From assembly GCA_051859245.1 (NCBI GenBank), contig JBHYGA010000008.1:32001-96000 (forward strand): a DNA stretch of 64,000 nucleotides, written 5' to 3'. The notes beneath the pieces were generated by a model that saw nothing but the letters and a program-made list of their open reading frames with translations, searched no databases and was not told the DNA's origin. The position numbers and the translations under genes are program-made. Below are positions 15,757-33,792 of the stretch, one piece after another. Position 1 is the stretch's first letter, and the number at the start of each line of letters is the position of its first letter. This DNA comes from Gemmatimonadaceae bacterium. Its GTDB lineage: Bacteria; Gemmatimonadota; Gemmatimonadetes; Gemmatimonadales; Gemmatimonadaceae.

Positions 15757-17307
15757 GTGGGCACGATTCTTCGGCTGGCCCTGCAGTCGCTGCGCAGTCG
15801 CGCGTTCACCTCGTCGCTCACCGTGGCGAGCATTGCGCTCAGCGTGACGTTGCTCGTGGGCATTGAACATGTGCGTAGCGGCGTGCGCGAAAGTTTTGCG
15901 GGCACCATTCGTGGTGTGGATCTCATCGTTGGTGCGCGCGGTGGATCGCTGCAGGTGTTGCTGTCCACGGTGTTTGGTATTGGTGCGTCGTCCACGGCGA
16001 TCAGCTACGAAACGTACGAGCGCTGGGCCGAACATCCGGCGGTGGCGTGGTCCATTCCGTTTGCGCTTGGCGACAGTCATCGCAGTTATCGCGTGATTGG
16101 CACCACGAACGAGTTTTACGAGCGGTATCGTTTTCGTGAAGACGGGCGCGTGACCTTTGCGGAGGGGCGTGCCGCGGAAACGGATACCGATGTGGTACTT
16201 GGTGCCGAAGTCGCGTCGCGTTTGGGTTACACGCTGGGTTCGCCGATCGTGGTGACGCACGGATTGCAGGGTGGCGGCATCGCGGACCACGAGGCGAATC
16301 CGTTTACGGTGGTGGGTATTTTGAACCGCACGTTCACGCCGATTGATCGCGCGATTTACGTGACGCTCGGTGGTATTGAAGCGATGCACGAGGATTTTGA
16401 GCAGGCGCCGAGTGCGGCGCCTGTGGTGCCGCCGGCGGGGACGCCGAGCATGCCGGGGGCGACGCCGCCGGTGATGCCGGGTGCGGAGCCGCCGCCGGTG
16501 ATGCCTGGCGCTACGCCGCCTGCAATGCCGGGATACGAGCCCCCGCCGGGCACGCCAACCATGCCGGGTGCGACGCCGCCGGTCATGCCGGGTGCAACGC
16601 CGCCGGTCATGCCGGGATATGAGCCGCCACCGGGCACGCCCACGATGCCCGGTGCGCAGCCGCCGGTAGCCTCAGAAGCGCGTCCGACGGCGTCGGTGTC
16701 GAGCGATTCGGCGCCGGCGGCCGACGACGACCACGCCGACCACGATCACGAAGCCGAACAGGTCTCGTCGTTCATGGTGGGGACGAAGAACCGATTCGAG
16801 GCGCTGCAGCTGCAGCGCGAAATGAACACGGATCTGGTGGAGCCAGTCACGGCCATCATTCCCGGCGTCGCACTCGGCGAACTGTGGCAGAACATTTCCA
16901 GCGCCGAAGTCGGCCTGCGCATTGTGGCCATGTTTGCGGTGGCGATTGGCCTCACGGGTATGCTGGTAGCGCTGTACAGCTCACTCGACGCGCGTCGCCG
17001 CGAAATGGCGATTCTGCGCGCGGTTGGCGCGGGTCCGCGCACCATTGTGTCGTTGCTCGTGATTGAATCCGCATTGCTGGCGTTTGTTGGCTGCGTGCTT
17101 GGTGTGTTGTTCGTCTATGCGATTCTCACGCTGGGGCAAGGCGCAATCGAAGCGCGTTCCGGTGTGCATCTTGCGATTCGCGCACTCGGCGCCACTGAGT
17201 GGAAGTATCTCGCGCTCGTGCTTGGCGCCGGCACGCTGATTGGTTTTGTGCCGGCGATCAAGGCGTATCGTATGTCGCTCACGGATGGCTTGAGTCCGCG
17301 CGCCTGA
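15757..17307 (+). CDS. ABC permease (FtsX/MacB-type) with Met/Pro-rich insertion
   Basis: DLIVGARG..LQ.LL..VF, LGDSH, RRREMAILRAVGA; four predicted TM helices. Confidence 0.9.
   Translation: MGTILRLALQSLRSRAFTSSLTVASIALSVTLLVGIEHVRSGVRESFAGTIRGVDLIVGARGGSLQVLLSTVFGIGASSTAISYETYERWAEHPAVAWSIPFALGDSHRSYRVIGTTNEFYERYRFREDGRVTFAEGRAAETDTDVVLGAEVASRLGYTLGSPIVVTHGLQGGGIADHEANPFTVVGILNRTFTPIDRAIYVTLGGIEAMHEDFEQAPSAAPVVPPAGTPSMPGATPPVMPGAEPPPVMPGATPPAMPGYEPPPGTPTMPGATPPVMPGATPPVMPGYEPPPGTPTMPGAQPPVASEARPTASVSSDSAPAADDDHADHDHEAEQVSSFMVGTKNRFEALQLQREMNTDLVEPVTAIIPGVALGELWQNISSAEVGLRIVAMFAVAIGLTGMLVALYSSLDARRREMAILRAVGAGPRTIVSLLVIESALLAFVGCVLGVLFVYAILTLGQGAIEARSGVHLAIRALGATEWKYLALVLGAGTLIGFVPAIKAYRMSLTDGLSPRA
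16450..16668 (+). repeat. eight in-frame MPG(A/Y)xPP repeats inside the permease
   Basis: MPGATPPV, MPGAEPPPV, MPGATPPA, MPGYEPPPGTPT and related units. Confidence 0.9.
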
Positions 17308-19106: not shown

Positions 19107-19204
19107 GCCGGGGCCCGTCGGCGCGCTGCGCCGACGGGCCAAGGGCACGAAGAACACAAAAGGACACGAAAACTGCAACGGCAACAGATTCTGAGGGGAA
19201 CTGC
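19107..19204 (+). repeat. REP-like GC hairpin with AAGGACACGAAAACTGC tail (copy 1)
   Basis: GGCCCGTCGGCGC-GCT-GCGCCGACGGGCC; near-identical copy at 50168. Confidence 0.8.
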
Positions 19205-19246: not shown

Positions 19247-20401
19247 TCAGCTTGGGCGCTTAGGTGCTCTCTCCAAACGGTAACGCTCGACCGAGAGCAG
19301 GTCATCCGCATTCCGACGAACTCCAAGCACGTAGTCGCGTCCGATTTCCATCACTTGCAAGCCGTTAGGTAGCACGACCGTCGCGATAACGGCACCTGAG
19401 GCGTTCAGCACTAGACACTCACGTGGTTGCGCTGTAGGCACTTCCTCGAACAACTCGACCCACAGACCATCGTTGTAGTCGGCGTATAAGCTGCTGTAGT
19501 AGGGTCGTGTCTTGGGACGCCACTTACTGTCCAGCTCCGCAAGAGCCAGCTCGCGATCTGCCCCAGGAGAGACCTCGCGAACCAGCCTTGCTCGTTCTGC
19601 TGCGATCCGCGACTCCCTCCAAGCCGTCTCTTTGATGGCCAACGTCGTGGATCCGGTGCTTCCGGTGCGAGTATCGAGCCACGACAGCTTTCTCTCGCCT
19701 GAGTCTCCGAACCACAGTTTCTCATAGGCACCAACAACGTGGAGATGGTGACCCAGCCGTTGTTTAGAGCCTAGCATGCCAGCTGCTGCGTTCGACGTCG
19801 CGACTGTAAGTGAGGTCGACGCCAAGCGCGGACCAAGCGACGCCGTGACCCGCGTCCGAGTGGGGTCCAGAAGCACGTACTCCACCGAATCTCGACGAAC
19901 TCCGGTTACCACCTTCGCTTCAACCGTCCAGCTACTCGTGCGCATTCCCCAGAACCGACCATTCCCTAGAACGCCGCCGATAGTGACTTTAGCGCCGTCG
20001 AGCACGGTCTCTCGGCGCTTCTCACGAACTGAGTCACTGTCGAACCAGACTGCTCGACGTCGGTCGTAAACGACGATTGCGTCGTTCAAGCGTCGCAGGA
20101 ATGCGATGGAACCGACTTCGTTTGGCCCCTCGCCGCGTCGTGTCGCGATCTGCAGAGGCTGACCGTTCGCGTCGAAGATGCGCAGTTCTCCTGATTGTCT
20201 CTCTGCGACTAGAAGGCGTCCGCGATTGAGTTCGCTAACCGCAACAATGGCGCCGAAATTTTTCGCAGGCGATCCATCATCCTCTATTCGAAGAGTCGGT
20301 GCAGACGAAACTTCGTAGCGTTGTATCGACTGTGCGGCGAGCGGGCGCAAGCCCATCCAAGCAAACAGTAGAAGTAAATTCGCACTTAAAGGTCCGGTCA
20401 C
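19247..20401 (-). CDS. secreted 6-bladed beta-propeller-type protein
   Basis: GTG start with GGAG SD gives a signal peptide; LRIFDANG, RRGEGPNE, DGLWV, DYVLGV..DDL..VERYRL patterns; codon usage less GC-skewed than neighbours. Confidence 0.65.
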   Translation of the reverse strand: MTGPLSANLLLLFAWMGLRPLAAQSIQRYEVSSAPTLRIEDDGSPAKNFGAIVAVSELNRGRLLVAERQSGELRIFDANGQPLQIATRRGEGPNEVGSIAFLRRLNDAIVVYDRRRAVWFDSDSVREKRRETVLDGAKVTIGGVLGNGRFWGMRTSSWTVEAKVVTGVRRDSVEYVLLDPTRTRVTASLGPRLASTSLTVATSNAAAGMLGSKQRLGHHLHVVGAYEKLWFGDSGERKLSWLDTRTGSTGSTTLAIKETAWRESRIAAERARLVREVSPGADRELALAELDSKWRPKTRPYYSSLYADYNDGLWVELFEEVPTAQPRECLVLNASGAVIATVVLPNGLQVMEIGRDYVLGVRRNADDLLSVERYRLERAPKRPS

Positions 20402-20429
20402 GATGACTCCAAGACGAAGAAGAATGAGC

Positions 20430-20480
20430 AAAAAAGAAAATGCTTGACAAAGATGCAGGGGGGGGGAGTATCGTCGGCAA
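20430..20480 (+). promoter_or_regulatory. sigma70-type promoter with G9 tract in the spacer
   Basis: A-rich UP element 20430-20440, TTGACA 20444-20449, G9 20458-20466, TATCGT 20469-20474 (19-nt spacer). Confidence 0.6.
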
Positions 20481-20561
20481 CTCATCTCACCCTGAGATGT
20501 AGTCGAAGCGTTCACTCAGGGGCGCTCCGAAGCTGATCCTCTAGACTGTCAGGAGTAGTCG

Positions 20562-20786
20562 ATGACGTTGAGACACTTTGGTTTTGCATTGTCGATGGCG
20601 GTCCTCAGTTTCGCATACACCGAAACCGCTCAAGCAGCGGACGAGGGTCCATGCCCTCGCATTACTTACGACTCGACAAACGGCTCGTGCAGCAACACCG
20701 GCGGAACGACGTGCAAGACCTGCAAGTACAACTGCAGCATCACCGGTGATGACGTCGAGATCGATCGCTGCCCGGCAGTCGAGTAA
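20562..20786 (+). CDS. secreted six-cysteine peptide (74 aa precursor)
   Basis: AGGAG SD; Sec signal ending AQA; mature 49 aa with C-x11-C-x7-C-x2-C-x3-C-x11-C; mostly C/G-ending codons. Confidence 0.8.
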   Translation: MTLRHFGFALSMAVLSFAYTETAQAADEGPCPRITYDSTNGSCSNTGGTTCKTCKYNCSITGDDVEIDRCPAVE

Positions 20787-20866
20787 GGCCATAGCGATAA
20801 AGCATTTCTCAAGCACACTCTGAAGCCTGCGTCCACGAACACTTTAGCTCAGGAACTACATCACGC

Positions 20867-21523
20867 GTGCGCAACAAGGAAAAACGTTCACGTTTCGATC
20901 GCATCCTGAGTGTTGCAACGGTCTTGGCATTTGCGACCGCGATCGGATTGTTCATTCGTCCGAGTGCTCCGCTTGGACGCAGGCTGATGAGCTATGTAGA
21001 GATACTGGAAGTTCAGTGGAAGGCACCAAAACGTTGGGCCGAGCTTTCTCTTGCTGCGCTGCCCCTGCAGGAAGGAGCAGCCAACTATCAAGTGATTATG
21101 ATCGCTGACTTTCAATGTGCGTTTTGCGCTGAGAGTGCACCGATCGTAGACTCCGCAATAGCACTTGGAATGAGCGTCGGATACCTGCACATGCCAGCTC
21201 CATCGCGCGCTTTAGCAGTCAGGGCTGCTGAGCTCAGTGTTTGCGCAGCCGCAGGTGGCGAGTTCAAACGGGCGTTTGACCACTATTTCTACACACTCAA
21301 TTGGGCGAACGCGGATTCCGTGGAGCTCATTCTGCCTAATGTCGAAGACCCGCGCTTCCAATCGTGTGCGCAATCAGATAGCGCGAAGCTTGAAGTGGAA
21401 CGATCGATTCGAGTTGCCTCGGAGCTTGGCGTTCGAGGTACTCCGGTCTTCGTCTCAAGAACCGGATTGATTCGCGGAATCCCAAGTCTGAAAGAGCTTC
21501 AGGCAATCGCCGGGGCGCAGTAA
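20867..21523 (+). CDS. membrane-anchored DsbA-like thioredoxin-fold protein
   Basis: DFQCAFC CxxC, GVRGTPVF cis-Pro loop, extra Cys pair, N-terminal TM. Confidence 0.85.
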   Translation: MRNKEKRSRFDRILSVATVLAFATAIGLFIRPSAPLGRRLMSYVEILEVQWKAPKRWAELSLAALPLQEGAANYQVIMIADFQCAFCAESAPIVDSAIALGMSVGYLHMPAPSRALAVRAAELSVCAAAGGEFKRAFDHYFYTLNWANADSVELILPNVEDPRFQSCAQSDSAKLEVERSIRVASELGVRGTPVFVSRTGLIRGIPSLKELQAIAGAQ

Positions 21524-21778
21524 TGTCAGCTTAGCTACGAAGGTGCGAATGGAGATAGTCACCATTCGGGAGCGACGGCAAACATCTTCGCTGAATGCTG
21601 GGCCTCTTGGACAAGGTGTAAGTCAATCCAAGAGACCAGACTCATTCAGATGAAAACTGAACGGTTCGCGACTTGCTTCCAAGCCGCGAGCTGCTTTCGG
21701 GTTTTTGTAGTTCGCAGTTTTCGCGCCTTCGCGTTCCCTGCGGCCCGCCCTGCAGGAACGTTGACCGGAGGGCAGTGA

Positions 21779-31582: not shown

Positions 31583-32401
31583 TTAGCGCCGAGCTCCCGT
31601 CCAGATCGCAACAATCCCGCATGATCCACCTCCTGTCAGCGGGATGAGTTCTGCAGGCGCATTCGCTGTACTCGGATAGATCTCAATTGCGGCTACAGAT
31701 CCGCCTCCCACCAACTCGTCAACCGTCAACCGCCTGTCGGCCGGCTCGGGCCCCGAGTAGTTGGGTGGTCGACGCTCGCGCGCCATTTCATCACCTGGTT
31801 GAAGCACGTCGTTCATTCGTACACCATCAAGCAGTATGGTCATCGCGCATGAACCTCGACCCGAAAGCGTCGAGCGCGAACGTTTGCCCTCTCGACGTAC
31901 CGTGACGTACCGTTTGCCTGCGAGCGCGTAAGAAGTCTGCATGGGTTTACGCTGATCCAGTTCCTCCGGCGTAATGAACTCGCCCACGATTGCACCATTC
32001 TGCACGCGCTGCATGCGATCGCAAAAGCCATTGCGGGCGAGAGGTGACGCTAGTGGGTTTCCCACCACGCGTACGCCTTGGATCTCCGTTGCGGTGCGCG
32101 AAAGCGTCACTTAATAAACCCCGTTGGTATCGCGATCCACTTTGCCAGAGAACGGCGCGTACCCTATGCGTCGCGCGCGGATTTGCAGCGTTGCTTGCTC
32201 CGTGTTGACGAGCCTCAGAATGCCTAGCGAATCTGTGACGCGACCGGACAAGGAACCGGCGTCCACAAGCGCGTACGGAACGGCAATGCCGGCCGAGTCT
32301 CGTACGTGCACCACAGAATCCTGGCCTGTGACAATCGCGCACGGAGCGGCAAGCGCCGCTAACGCGAGAGTCAGCCGGAGAGTGCTTATTCGCATCGGCA
32401 T
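31583..32401 (-). pseudogene. CarboxypepD_reg-like + TonB-plug-like secreted protein interrupted by an in-frame TAA at 32111-32113
   Basis: ORFs 32111..32401 and 31583..32110 share a frame (GVY*VTL); signal peptide, TDSLG, RRIGYAP, then LDG, AAIEIY, CGIVAIWT. Confidence 0.75.
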
Positions 32402-32420
32402 GCGAAAAAGGTACGAAATC

Positions 32421-32429
32421 GGGGGGGGG
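32421..32429. repeat. G9 homopolymer tract in a divergent promoter region
   Basis: Nine consecutive G; on the minus strand 7 nt upstream of a TACCTT box that precedes ATG 32401. Confidence 0.9.
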
Positions 32430-32583
32430 CAAGCGAGCTGAGCTTCTAGCCCTGCGCCGCTCTTGGCACGCCTGAGACACGCCTTGCGCTGCGAGAGTTC
32501 CAACCGTCGATTGGACATGAGCGAGGACATTCATGGGAGTTCGTCGCAATGTTTTCCCGTGAGAAGACCTTCACACGACAACC

Positions 32584-33792
32584 ATGAAGCATTCTCTCAA
32601 GGCCGTCGCTTTGGTTTGCGTCGCATTAATCGGCTGCGCCGACAGTTCGCGCGGTGACGATGCTGCGGTAGGAGCGATTGCAGCGACGGGTGAAGACGCT
32701 CCGTCGCGACCTGTCGAGATGGTCGCAGCCGAAGATGTGTTGAGCGACTCTGTGCCTGATGATCCGTCGCCCAACGCCACGGAGAAGATTCTCCTTCAGC
32801 CCGCACATTGGCCCGAGGATCTGCGCGAATCCGGTCGACGTCCGACATCGCTACAAATGCGCGTGCGTTGGAGCAACGTCGGCACGTGGGACGATACCAC
32901 CTTCCTGCACCCGACACACGCAGAAGTTATGCCGAACTCTGTGATCGTTCAGGACATTGGACGCATGTCCTTGATGGGACTGCGACGTGAGGATGGCGAG
33001 GTGCTGTGGAGAAAGGGCAGACGCGGAAGCGGGCCGGGCGAGTTGCTGCTTGGTGAAATCTCGAGAGCGACAGATTCTTCCGTTTTTTACTACGATTCTG
33101 GAAACAGGCGCATCACGGAATGGACGAGCGAGGGCGCGCTCCTTGAATCGCGGAATGTCACCATGATGGGATTGCTTCGCGGGCTCTGTCGTTTATCGAA
33201 CGGAGAACTGCACGCGTTCACTTTCCCGAGTGGCACGATTCGGGGTCGCGGTCTCGCCCGACTCGTGCCCGATGTCGACTCACTGGTGGACTTAATACCG
33301 GTAGCACTTGGTCGGCCCGTTCACCGCACTGCGCTGGATGCCCAACTGAAGCTCTATCCGCTTGAAGGCGGCTCGTGCGCACTGGGCGCTCATGACGAGT
33401 CGTGGCTTGCCGTATTTTCCGACGTGGCAACGGTTTCGCCGCTTCCGTTAGTTGAGTTTGTGCCGCCGCCGATTGTCATCGACACGAAAGAAGGCAAGGG
33501 CACGCGAACATCTTTCGTGCCCGGACAGCCGTTCGGGGTGCAGGCGGTTGCGCAGCTCGGCTCCTATCTCGCGGTCGGGTTTGGGGGAAAAACGTCAGTG
33601 CGGCGGCGCCTCGTTGATTTTTACCATCTGAATCCCTGGCGCTACGAGGGCAGCATCGTGATGCCTGGCACTGTGCGCGGATTATCCGCCCGCGACTCCA
33701 CGCTGGTCATCGTATCCGAGGACACCTCCGGCTTTCCCCGGATCGATAACTTCGCGGTCAGTGTGTTTACGAAAGCGTGCTGCAACCAGTAA
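32584..33792 (+). CDS. beta-propeller lipoprotein (6-bladed/TolB-like)
   Basis: Lipobox LIGC; GRRGSGPGEL, YDSGNRRIT, VDFY..Y.GS patterns. Confidence 0.7.
   Translation: MKHSLKAVALVCVALIGCADSSRGDDAAVGAIAATGEDAPSRPVEMVAAEDVLSDSVPDDPSPNATEKILLQPAHWPEDLRESGRRPTSLQMRVRWSNVGTWDDTTFLHPTHAEVMPNSVIVQDIGRMSLMGLRREDGEVLWRKGRRGSGPGELLLGEISRATDSSVFYYDSGNRRITEWTSEGALLESRNVTMMGLLRGLCRLSNGELHAFTFPSGTIRGRGLARLVPDVDSLVDLIPVALGRPVHRTALDAQLKLYPLEGGSCALGAHDESWLAVFSDVATVSPLPLVEFVPPPIVIDTKEGKGTRTSFVPGQPFGVQAVAQLGSYLAVGFGGKTSVRRRLVDFYHLNPWRYEGSIVMPGTVRGLSARDSTLVIVSEDTSGFPRIDNFAVSVFTKACCNQ

Follow-up and report, generated by a model that had tools for sequence, protein, structure and literature searches.

The 64,000-nt stretch of DNA analyzed here (the window: positions 32,001 to 96,000 of contig JBHYGA010000008.1, from a Gemmatimonadaceae bacterium) carries, between an M28 peptidase gene and ruvA, a cassette of three genes, encoding a secreted six-cysteine peptide, a membrane-anchored DsbA-like protein, and an exported beta-propeller protein. 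New in it are a defined six-Cys peptide family, co-inheritance of the genes at subtype level, and a promoter with a poly-G tract. The role we favor, with a probability of roughly 0.45, is that peptide and propeller are a variable ligand and its cognate binder, serving recognition or antagonism between strains and carried on a mobile, phase-variable cassette. An earlier reading made without database searches (the sequence-only reading) had proposed a candidate new system here, and the proposal stands against the literature searched, the trio being real and recurring. That reading mentions neither the G9-tract promoter nor the flanking repeat arms nor the genome's three paralogous cassettes. The parts of the cassette are:

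20562..20786, + strand: peptide gene, secreted six-Cys mini-protein (74 aa; 25-aa Sec signal, 49-aa acidic mature part)
20867..21523, + strand: membrane-anchored DsbA-like thioredoxin-fold protein of the peptide-linked subfamily (218 aa)
19247..20401, - strand: exported six-bladed beta-propeller, NHL/DUF4221/DUF5128-like (384 aa from the most likely start)
20444..20474, + strand: candidate sigma-70-type promoter for the peptide and DsbA genes (TTGACA at 20444-20449, TATCGT at 20469-20474)
20450..20480, - strand: weak, overlapping and conjectural promoter for the propeller (TTGCCG, 19-nt spacer over the same G tract, CATCTT)

The three cassette genes

All three frames are intact, each with a ribosome site. 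The peptide gene has AGGAG at 20551-20555, 5′ of its open reading frame (ORF), and a signal peptide ending in A-Q-A; the 74-aa ORF, its Sec signal and its mature part had been described correctly beforehand, down to each of the six cysteines. A single-sequence homolog search with the peptide matched the peptide itself and nothing else, and its relatives surfaced solely via DsbA neighborhoods and a two-sequence profile. Run against 1.84 billion proteins, the profile gave 33 matches, of which three were dropped (two long chance matches and one over-long frame) and 30 aligned. These form a family without a name, with the core C-x7-C-x2-C-x-Y-x-C; C31, C43, C54, Y56, C58, and C70 are invariant across all 30, C51 is nearly so, and every member (30/30) has a Sec-type signal. 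A Pfam scan of the 30 found no family in more than one of them. In the ESM Atlas the peptide gives unnamed clusters scoring below 0.9, Acidobacteriota being commonest; the family profile had 0 matches in five genomes reached via Acidobacteriota-titled loci, which is uninformative either way.

The mature peptide is modeled as an all-beta structure of four strands with no helix (predicted local distance difference test score, pLDDT, 80). Structure searches with this model gave no clear known fold, the best matches being weak and SH3/Tudor-like (Z ≤4.2), and no defensin among the matches listed. Its net charge is -4; 28 of the 30 family members are negative and two neutral, and acidic peptides make up 86% of 121 from cassettes generally. 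The sequence-only reading had called the peptide defensin-like, a comparison which neither the charge nor the helix-free model bears out, and since the peptide, its family and the cassette peptides are mostly acidic, a membrane-lytic defensin is unlikely.

The DsbA-like protein has an N-terminal hydrophobic anchor, a CAFC motif, a G-T-P loop, and a second Cys pair (C126/C167); D81, C84, C87, T192, and P193 are invariant among 25 aligned DsbA sequences. With 25.5 bits against Pfam Thioredoxin_4 (cut-off 23.2), and with its CAFC and T-P loop, it is confirmed as the membrane-anchored CxxC/cis-Pro thioredoxin-fold protein that had been proposed. Its profile matches solved chains of the DsbA/BdbD/ScsC type, some of these solved relatives being isomerase- or metal-resistance-type proteins. 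VKOR is present in the genome, in which DsbB had no match. The propeller was considered as a target of this enzyme and rejected, since its mature part has one Cys and can form no disulfide; the likely DsbA substrate is the peptide. Any Cys at all is lacking in 34 of 84 cassette propellers.

The propeller most likely starts at a GTG at 20401, behind GGAG, and has a probable signal peptide ending in L-A-A. Against Pfam DUF5128 it scores 13.7 bits, below the cut-off of 22.9 (a close relative scores 16.6 bits). An AlphaFold2 model from a 53-row alignment (pLDDT 86) matches six-bladed NHL propellers and Bacteroides DUF4221/BF0058 propellers; against 3s9j it gives Z 17.1 with a root-mean-square deviation of 4.7 over 307 aligned positions, tied with NHL domains, and its nearest bacterial folds are the Bacteroides exported proteins 3s9j and 4raa. 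The minus-strand ORF and this six-bladed match uphold the earlier call of a secreted, divergent propeller-type gene. As a feature of the system, however, the divergent layout fails, as the nearest propeller is on the opposite strand in only 2 of 56 cases and is co-directional in the closest relatives. Complex prediction for peptide and propeller, with alignments, scored 0.00 in two runs, but the controls also did not fold.

The G+C content at third codon positions (GC3) is 0.53 in the DsbA gene and 0.60 in the propeller gene, vs. 0.65-0.74 in nine neighboring host genes, which agrees with the A/T-ending codons noted previously; in the peptide gene it is 0.70, inside the host-like range.

The genome has 56 propeller paralogs vs. 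4 cassette-type DsbAs. A second paralog in the window (32584-33792, +), with no peptide or DsbA gene adjoining, is divergent from a CarboxypepD_reg-like ORF (32111-32530, -) and a Plug-like ORF (31583-32110, -); these are weak Pfam matches, and the two frames may correspond to a single one in relatives. A G9 run near this propeller, at about 32421, has no clear -35/-10 geometry.

Recurrence across Gemmatimonadota

A profile of 25 peptide-linked-type DsbAs found matches in 67 of 301 Gemmatimonadota genomes. The sample consisted of the best 90 of about 130 matches by rank, with two training sequences dropped (90 DsbA genes in 88 loci). A fixed detector called peptides by the same rule in this subfamily, in random windows, and in generic controls, these being 74 DsbAs from other phyla taken from a pattern scan, among the matches listed. 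A same-strand peptide lies within 300 bp of 51/90 subfamily DsbAs vs. 3/74 generic ones, and within 2.1 kb of 72/90 vs. 7/74 (opposite strand, 1); the Cys count is even in 67 of these 72 linked peptides. A propeller lies within 1.4 kb of 56/90 vs. 0/74. In random 700-bp windows of the source genome (5,000 draws), the detector found a peptide within 300 bp in 0.9%, and at the wider distance in 4.8%. The trio thus recurs in relatives, as the sequence-only reading suggested checking, although the contrast is descriptive and not a probability, because the training set was mostly peptide-linked DsbAs and the genomes are kin. One unpublished genome (G021) counts in the tallies and underlies no claim apart from them.

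Within the source genome, all four DsbA paralogs of this type adjoin a secreted 6- or 8-Cys peptide, and three of the four have a propeller within about 1.2 kb; a fifth, generic DsbA has no peptide. The three paralogous cassettes are:

G000:C1:528471-531284: DsbA, 8-Cys peptide and propeller, behind TTGACA-G10-CATCGT (spacer 18)
C4:485331-487797: DsbA frame, two 8-Cys peptides and propeller
C1:1096110-1097262: DsbA and 8-Cys peptide

The DsbA frame of the C4 cassette spans just 153 codons between stops and is possibly broken. Cassette peptides have 6-10 cysteines, whose spacing differs widely between cassettes. The cassette may also occur outside Gemmatimonadota. Two loci, L112 (record titled Proteobacteria, label as given) and L158, have a subfamily DsbA with an adjacent 8-Cys secreted peptide. 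After the DsbA gene of four related loci comes a fourth ORF of about 400-450 aa with no Pfam match (L031:4803-6146, L297:1728-3032, L264, and L293).

Recurrent neighbors in 128 loci are few, and include CarboxypepD_reg proteins (23), MacB/FtsX permeases (12), integrases (7), extracytoplasmic function (ECF) sigma factors (6), and LuxR-type regulators (4). These bear on two other roles. One is that of a metal-binding or redox-buffer peptide, with metal held by the cysteines, as a Cys-rich, acidic, exported peptide might suggest. The even Cys numbers and the oxidase-type neighbor indicate disulfides instead, such different Cys spacings do not fit, and no metal-handling family was found among 22 neighbor proteins scanned, leaving this highly improbable. 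The other is a diffusible signal of pherotype kind, with the propeller as its receptor. A linked partner and an exported peptide that is small, stable and variable would suit this role, as would the ECF and LuxR-type genes, but no transducer is linked in the window or in most loci, the propeller is without any domain in the membrane or the cytoplasm, and random promoter switching (below) is a poor fit to density sensing; we consider a signaling role very unlikely.

Co-inheritance of the genes

For all three window genes the best match is at one locus (L031, in genome G047), from another family of the same order; it ranked first among 121 peptides, the DsbAs of the collected loci, and 158 propellers, including 55 in-genome paralogs. 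Relatives with this peptide family are co-directional in gene order. Four of the five best non-training DsbA matches to the pair formed by the window and G047 adjoin the same peptide family, and a metagenome locus found by the peptide motif alone (L264) carries both DsbA and propeller. From the propeller side, the top 5 relatives of 105 are all propellers at loci with this family. In the DsbA tree, all seven DsbAs with the family group together in a clade of 14 among the 142 (FastTree support 0.948). DsbA and propeller trees have a top-three neighbor in common at 38 of 84 loci, vs. a maximum of 18 in 200 permutations; the propeller tree is a quick one, and one locus (L298) was excluded from the peptide family in the tree comparison.

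The candidate poly-G promoter

The -35 hexamer of the candidate promoter is perfect, and its 19-nt spacer contains a G9 tract at 20458-20466. The 4.7-Mb genome has seven G/C runs of at least 9 nt, two of which lie inside -35/-10 spacers before cassettes; the other, a G10 run with the same geometry, precedes the second cassette of this genome. Across the sample, G/C runs of at least 8 nt occur within 1.4 kb upstream of 17 of the 90 DsbA cassettes, with 5 downstream, and 1/74 and 2/23 in controls. A sequencing artifact was considered for the window tract and rejected, the run being internal and having -35/-10 geometry. G runs at contig ends (e.g., L036) are likely artifacts.

In a reverse test, blind to genes, TTGACA-N2-10-G8 was searched in 401 genomes of the order. 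It gave 41 distinct sites in 30 genomes (the reversed pattern gave 9 matches), and 22 of the 41, four of them known before the test, directly precede a same-strand peptide, DsbA-subfamily or propeller gene, 10 with DsbA. Plain TTGACA sites in the source genome do so in 13 of 1,057 cases. Of the tract sites, 32/41 have a -10-like hexamer within 6 nt 3′ of the run, vs. 8/86 other G runs. Spacers of tract-free promoters peak at 17 (15 of the 32 with lengths 16-19; 2 at 19), whereas those of tract promoters are flat, with 7, 6, 3, and 6 at lengths 16-19. A consensus promoter scan accepts spacers of 16-18 only, and so missed the 19-nt promoter of the window.

In Neisseria meningitidis, porA has a poly-G tract between -35 and -10, and a change of one base alters transcription (PMC3899988). 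By analogy, the G tract here probably gives slipped-strand phase variation of the peptide and DsbA genes. Three paralogous genes for S8 peptidase lipoproteins of about 1,040 aa, in genome G366 (L338, L339, and L344), also stand behind TTGACA with G9 or G12, so the probable tract switch is not confined to peptide cassettes. Two of these promoters have identical flanks and G12 vs. G9, a difference that assembly error could also produce.

Phase variation by promoter tracts is reported for surface proteins (PMC3899988), which bears on a further possibility: that the peptide is the small, disulfide-locked subunit of a propeller complex kept on the producer, at the surface or in the periplasm, with a structural role as adhesin, lid, or scaffold. 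A promoter switch would let part of the population hide this complex from phages or grazers. Lipobox-like motifs in 35 of 83 cassette propellers would favor retention of this kind, and the recurrent CarboxypepD_reg neighbors, the Bacteroides exported proteins as nearest folds, and the lack of a dedicated exporter are in keeping with it. The window propeller, however, is one without a lipobox, and such a complex would by itself explain neither the excess of propellers over cassette DsbAs nor the stand-alone peptides described below; this alternative ranks next after the favored role, but is unlikely.

Insertion site and probable mobility

The window cassette was absent between the M28 peptidase gene and ruvA in all 10 congeners with a ruvA match (of 14). 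The interval (L062-L067) is a gap of about 200-460 bp in four, holds a small PIN-like gene (labeled by eye) in three, a long unrelated ORF (1,199 codons) in one, and other propellers in two (G002 and G012). Since congeners have nothing or other cargo there, the site is a cargo hotspot. Repeat arms bracket the cassette:

19111..19176, + strand: GC-rich hairpin, left arm of a dispersed REP-like (repetitive extragenic palindrome) repeat, just 3′ of the M28 peptidase stop
21714..21739, - strand: right REP-like arm, inverted and belonging to a related variant of the repeat, immediately before the stop of ruvA

A distance of 2,580 bp separates the two arms; for most other pairs of this genome it is about 100-130 bp. 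At the same site in G002, the closest congener, repeats of this kind stand on either side of a different propeller. No Y1 (REP-type) transposase was found in the genome, and no arm was found within 4 kb of the other three cassettes. About 30 further REP-like arms occur across the genome, mostly as inverted pairs, one of them adjoining a PDDEXK_3 (GxxExxY) gene at C5:414217. Viral contigs gave three motif matches, one of them a 34-codon frame without a signal peptide, and plasmids gave two distant, generic DsbAs. With the cassette missing from this site in 10 congeners, and the best relatives of its three genes together at the same loci, the mobile module proposed in the sequence-only reading holds up: peptide, DsbA-like protein and propeller are probably a mobile unit.

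The same site admits another interpretation, in which the unit is peptide plus DsbA, and propellers gather at cargo hotspots without binding the peptide, as hitchhikers, or in which the cassette is decaying here. The peptide-free propellers at this site in two congeners (G002 and G012) and the 56 paralogs point this way, as do the inverted orientation, the lost lipobox and the 19-nt spacer of the window copy, and the missing global mirror-tree signal (below). The window propeller is nonetheless nearer to five family-locus propellers elsewhere than to its 55 in-genome paralogs, and the intact frames with their ribosome sites argue against decay; on balance this is quite improbable.

Elsewhere in the window, an ATP-binding cassette (ABC) permease (15757-17307), adjoining an ATPase and a DUF3299 gene, has a long repeat insert rich in Pro, Gly and Met, and a short stretch rich in His and Asp.

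Proposed mechanism

In the recognition or antagonism role favored here, transcription would begin at the sigma-70-type promoter, with the -35/-10 spacing set by the G tract; the geometry and its enrichment are seen, and the switching is suggested by porA. Slippage by one or two bases would interconvert a weak spacer of 19, as assembled, and a strong one of 17-18, so that part of the population expresses the genes. Sec would export the peptide, which has a conserved signal and would be cut after A-Q-A. Its three disulfides would be formed by the anchored DsbA-like paralog, re-oxidized by VKOR, a chemistry to which the motifs, the linkage and the presence of VKOR point. The co-inherited propeller would then bind the folded peptide outside the inner membrane. 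As variable ligand and cognate binder, the two might serve strain-to-strain recognition or receptor-mediated antagonism, and the many stand-alone propellers might act as a stock of binders for the peptides of other strains.

A wider version would have Gemmatimonadota, a free-living phylum, carry a large polymorphic repertoire of disulfide-locked mini-proteins, each with its own foldase and cognate propeller and switched stochastically by poly-G/C tracts in promoters, as a ligand-receptor "identity" or antagonism system. In this version, too, stand-alone propellers would be a library of binders for foreign peptides, and the one tract in the window might switch two divergent genes together. We regard this wider version as tentative and somewhat unlikely.

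Arguments against the proposed role

A number of observations weigh against the proposed role. The window cassette departs from its relatives in several respects: its propeller is inverted and has no lipobox, its DsbA is without a His found in nearly all relatives, and the fourth ORF of the four related loci is missing. The switch has its own difficulties, with only 17 of 90 cassettes having an upstream G/C run of at least 8 nt and most being tract-free, and with 19 of the 41 tract promoters not before cassette genes (a few of these have short downstream sequence). The description "weak as assembled" is itself unsure, because the tract length in the assembly may be a sequencing error. No recurrent outer-membrane exporter was found, an HlyD-type gene being present in 3 of 128 loci. 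Global correlation of DsbA and propeller distances is not significant (rho 0.06, with 78 of 500 permutations as high), the window propeller lacks starred support in either tree, and co-inheritance can be plain linkage.

The stand-alone peptides are a further argument of this kind. The peptide family was found in 13 of 401 genomes, and in eight of these, all of one genus, a conserved copy stands alone, neither a DsbA nor a propeller gene lying within 1.5 kb, so that neither partner is obligatory. Of the dedicated DsbA proposed in the sequence-only reading, the linkage therefore stands, while a strict need for it is weakened. The stand-alone subfamily is neutral to basic (charge 0 to +3), the only subfamily so charged, and copies of this type dominate the true metagenome matches to the family; possibly they are domesticated, with a different role. 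They occur in 8 of 16 sampled genomes of the one genus and in metagenomes (L357-L364, L253, L256, L257, L260, L262, L266-L270, L277, and L279). A small lipoprotein-like ORF comes next after several of these genes.

Comparison with known systems

A literature search at title and abstract level found no publication on this cassette or on phase variation in Gemmatimonadota. If the proposed role is right, hundreds of different disulfide-rich mini-protein scaffolds, of a kind known chiefly from eukaryotes, are encoded along with their folding enzymes in an environmental phylum that has received little study, and are controlled by phase variation at promoter repeats, a mechanism reported until now mainly from pathogens. 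It would also give one of the largest unexplained propeller families of these genomes, with its 56 copies here, a candidate role in peptide binding.

In the gene clusters of the bacteroidetocins (class IIf, Bacteroidales), a thiol oxidoreductase is encoded beside the small Cys-containing peptide and is believed to make its disulfides; the peptide has a double-glycine leader, and an ABC transporter/peptidase and a five-transmembrane protein are also encoded there (PMC6671954). The Gemmatimonadota cassette has a similar pairing of small Cys peptide and thiol oxidoreductase; it differs from these clusters, as described there, in its Sec signal, propeller partner, 6-10 cysteines, acidic peptide, and poly-G promoter. 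No ABC transporter/peptidase of bacteroidetocin type was found in the window cassette or among recurrent neighbors.

Sublancin, a glycosylated bacteriocin of Bacillus subtilis that has a dedicated ABC exporter and relies on SunI for immunity, is encoded in the horizontally acquired operon sunA-sunT-bdbA-sunS-bdbB, with its own thiol-disulfide oxidoreductases (PMC6391423). The cassette, too, is probably a horizontally acquired peptide operon with such an enzyme, but it has no glycosyltransferase, exporter, or SunI-type immunity gene.

In the DsbL/DsbI-AstA system, and in dsbA2-dsbB-astA of Campylobacter, a DsbA paralog is reported to serve a co-encoded exported substrate (PMC4460558). The cassette likewise has a DsbA paralog that would be dedicated to a co-encoded exported substrate, but it has no DsbB/DsbI gene, and where AstA is a large enzyme, the likely substrate here is the peptide. 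AstA is itself a propeller.

The methylamine dehydrogenase (mau) cluster combines a propeller (mauB), a thioredoxin-like protein (mauD), and a disulfide-rich small subunit (mauA). The cassette has the same combination of propeller, thioredoxin-fold protein and small disulfide-rich exported protein. Its 49-aa mature peptide, unlike the mau small subunit, has no Trp for tryptophan tryptophylquinone (TTQ), its peptides are hypervariable, and no MauE or MauG gene was found between the M28 peptidase gene and ruvA.

Bacteroidota have neighborhoods in which NVEALA (PF14055) peptides accompany DUF5128-DUF4221 propellers. NVEALA was absent from the literature searched, in which a function for those loci was not found. 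Here too a small exported Cys peptide lies beside a six-bladed propeller that falls broadly in their structural group (3s9j, 4raa), but 0 of 30 family members match PF14055 at E 0.1, and the partner is DsbA-type.

With respect to its promoter, the closest parallels are porA, introduced above, and hifA/hifB of Haemophilus influenzae, for which a shared, divergent, phase-variable promoter is described (PMC3899988). These encode surface antigens of pathogens, in contrast to the peptide cassettes of a mostly environmental phylum, for which switching is proposed here. The window promoter resembles that of porA in having a homopolymer tract within its -35/-10 spacer, and that of hifA/hifB in that the tract is possibly common to two divergent genes.

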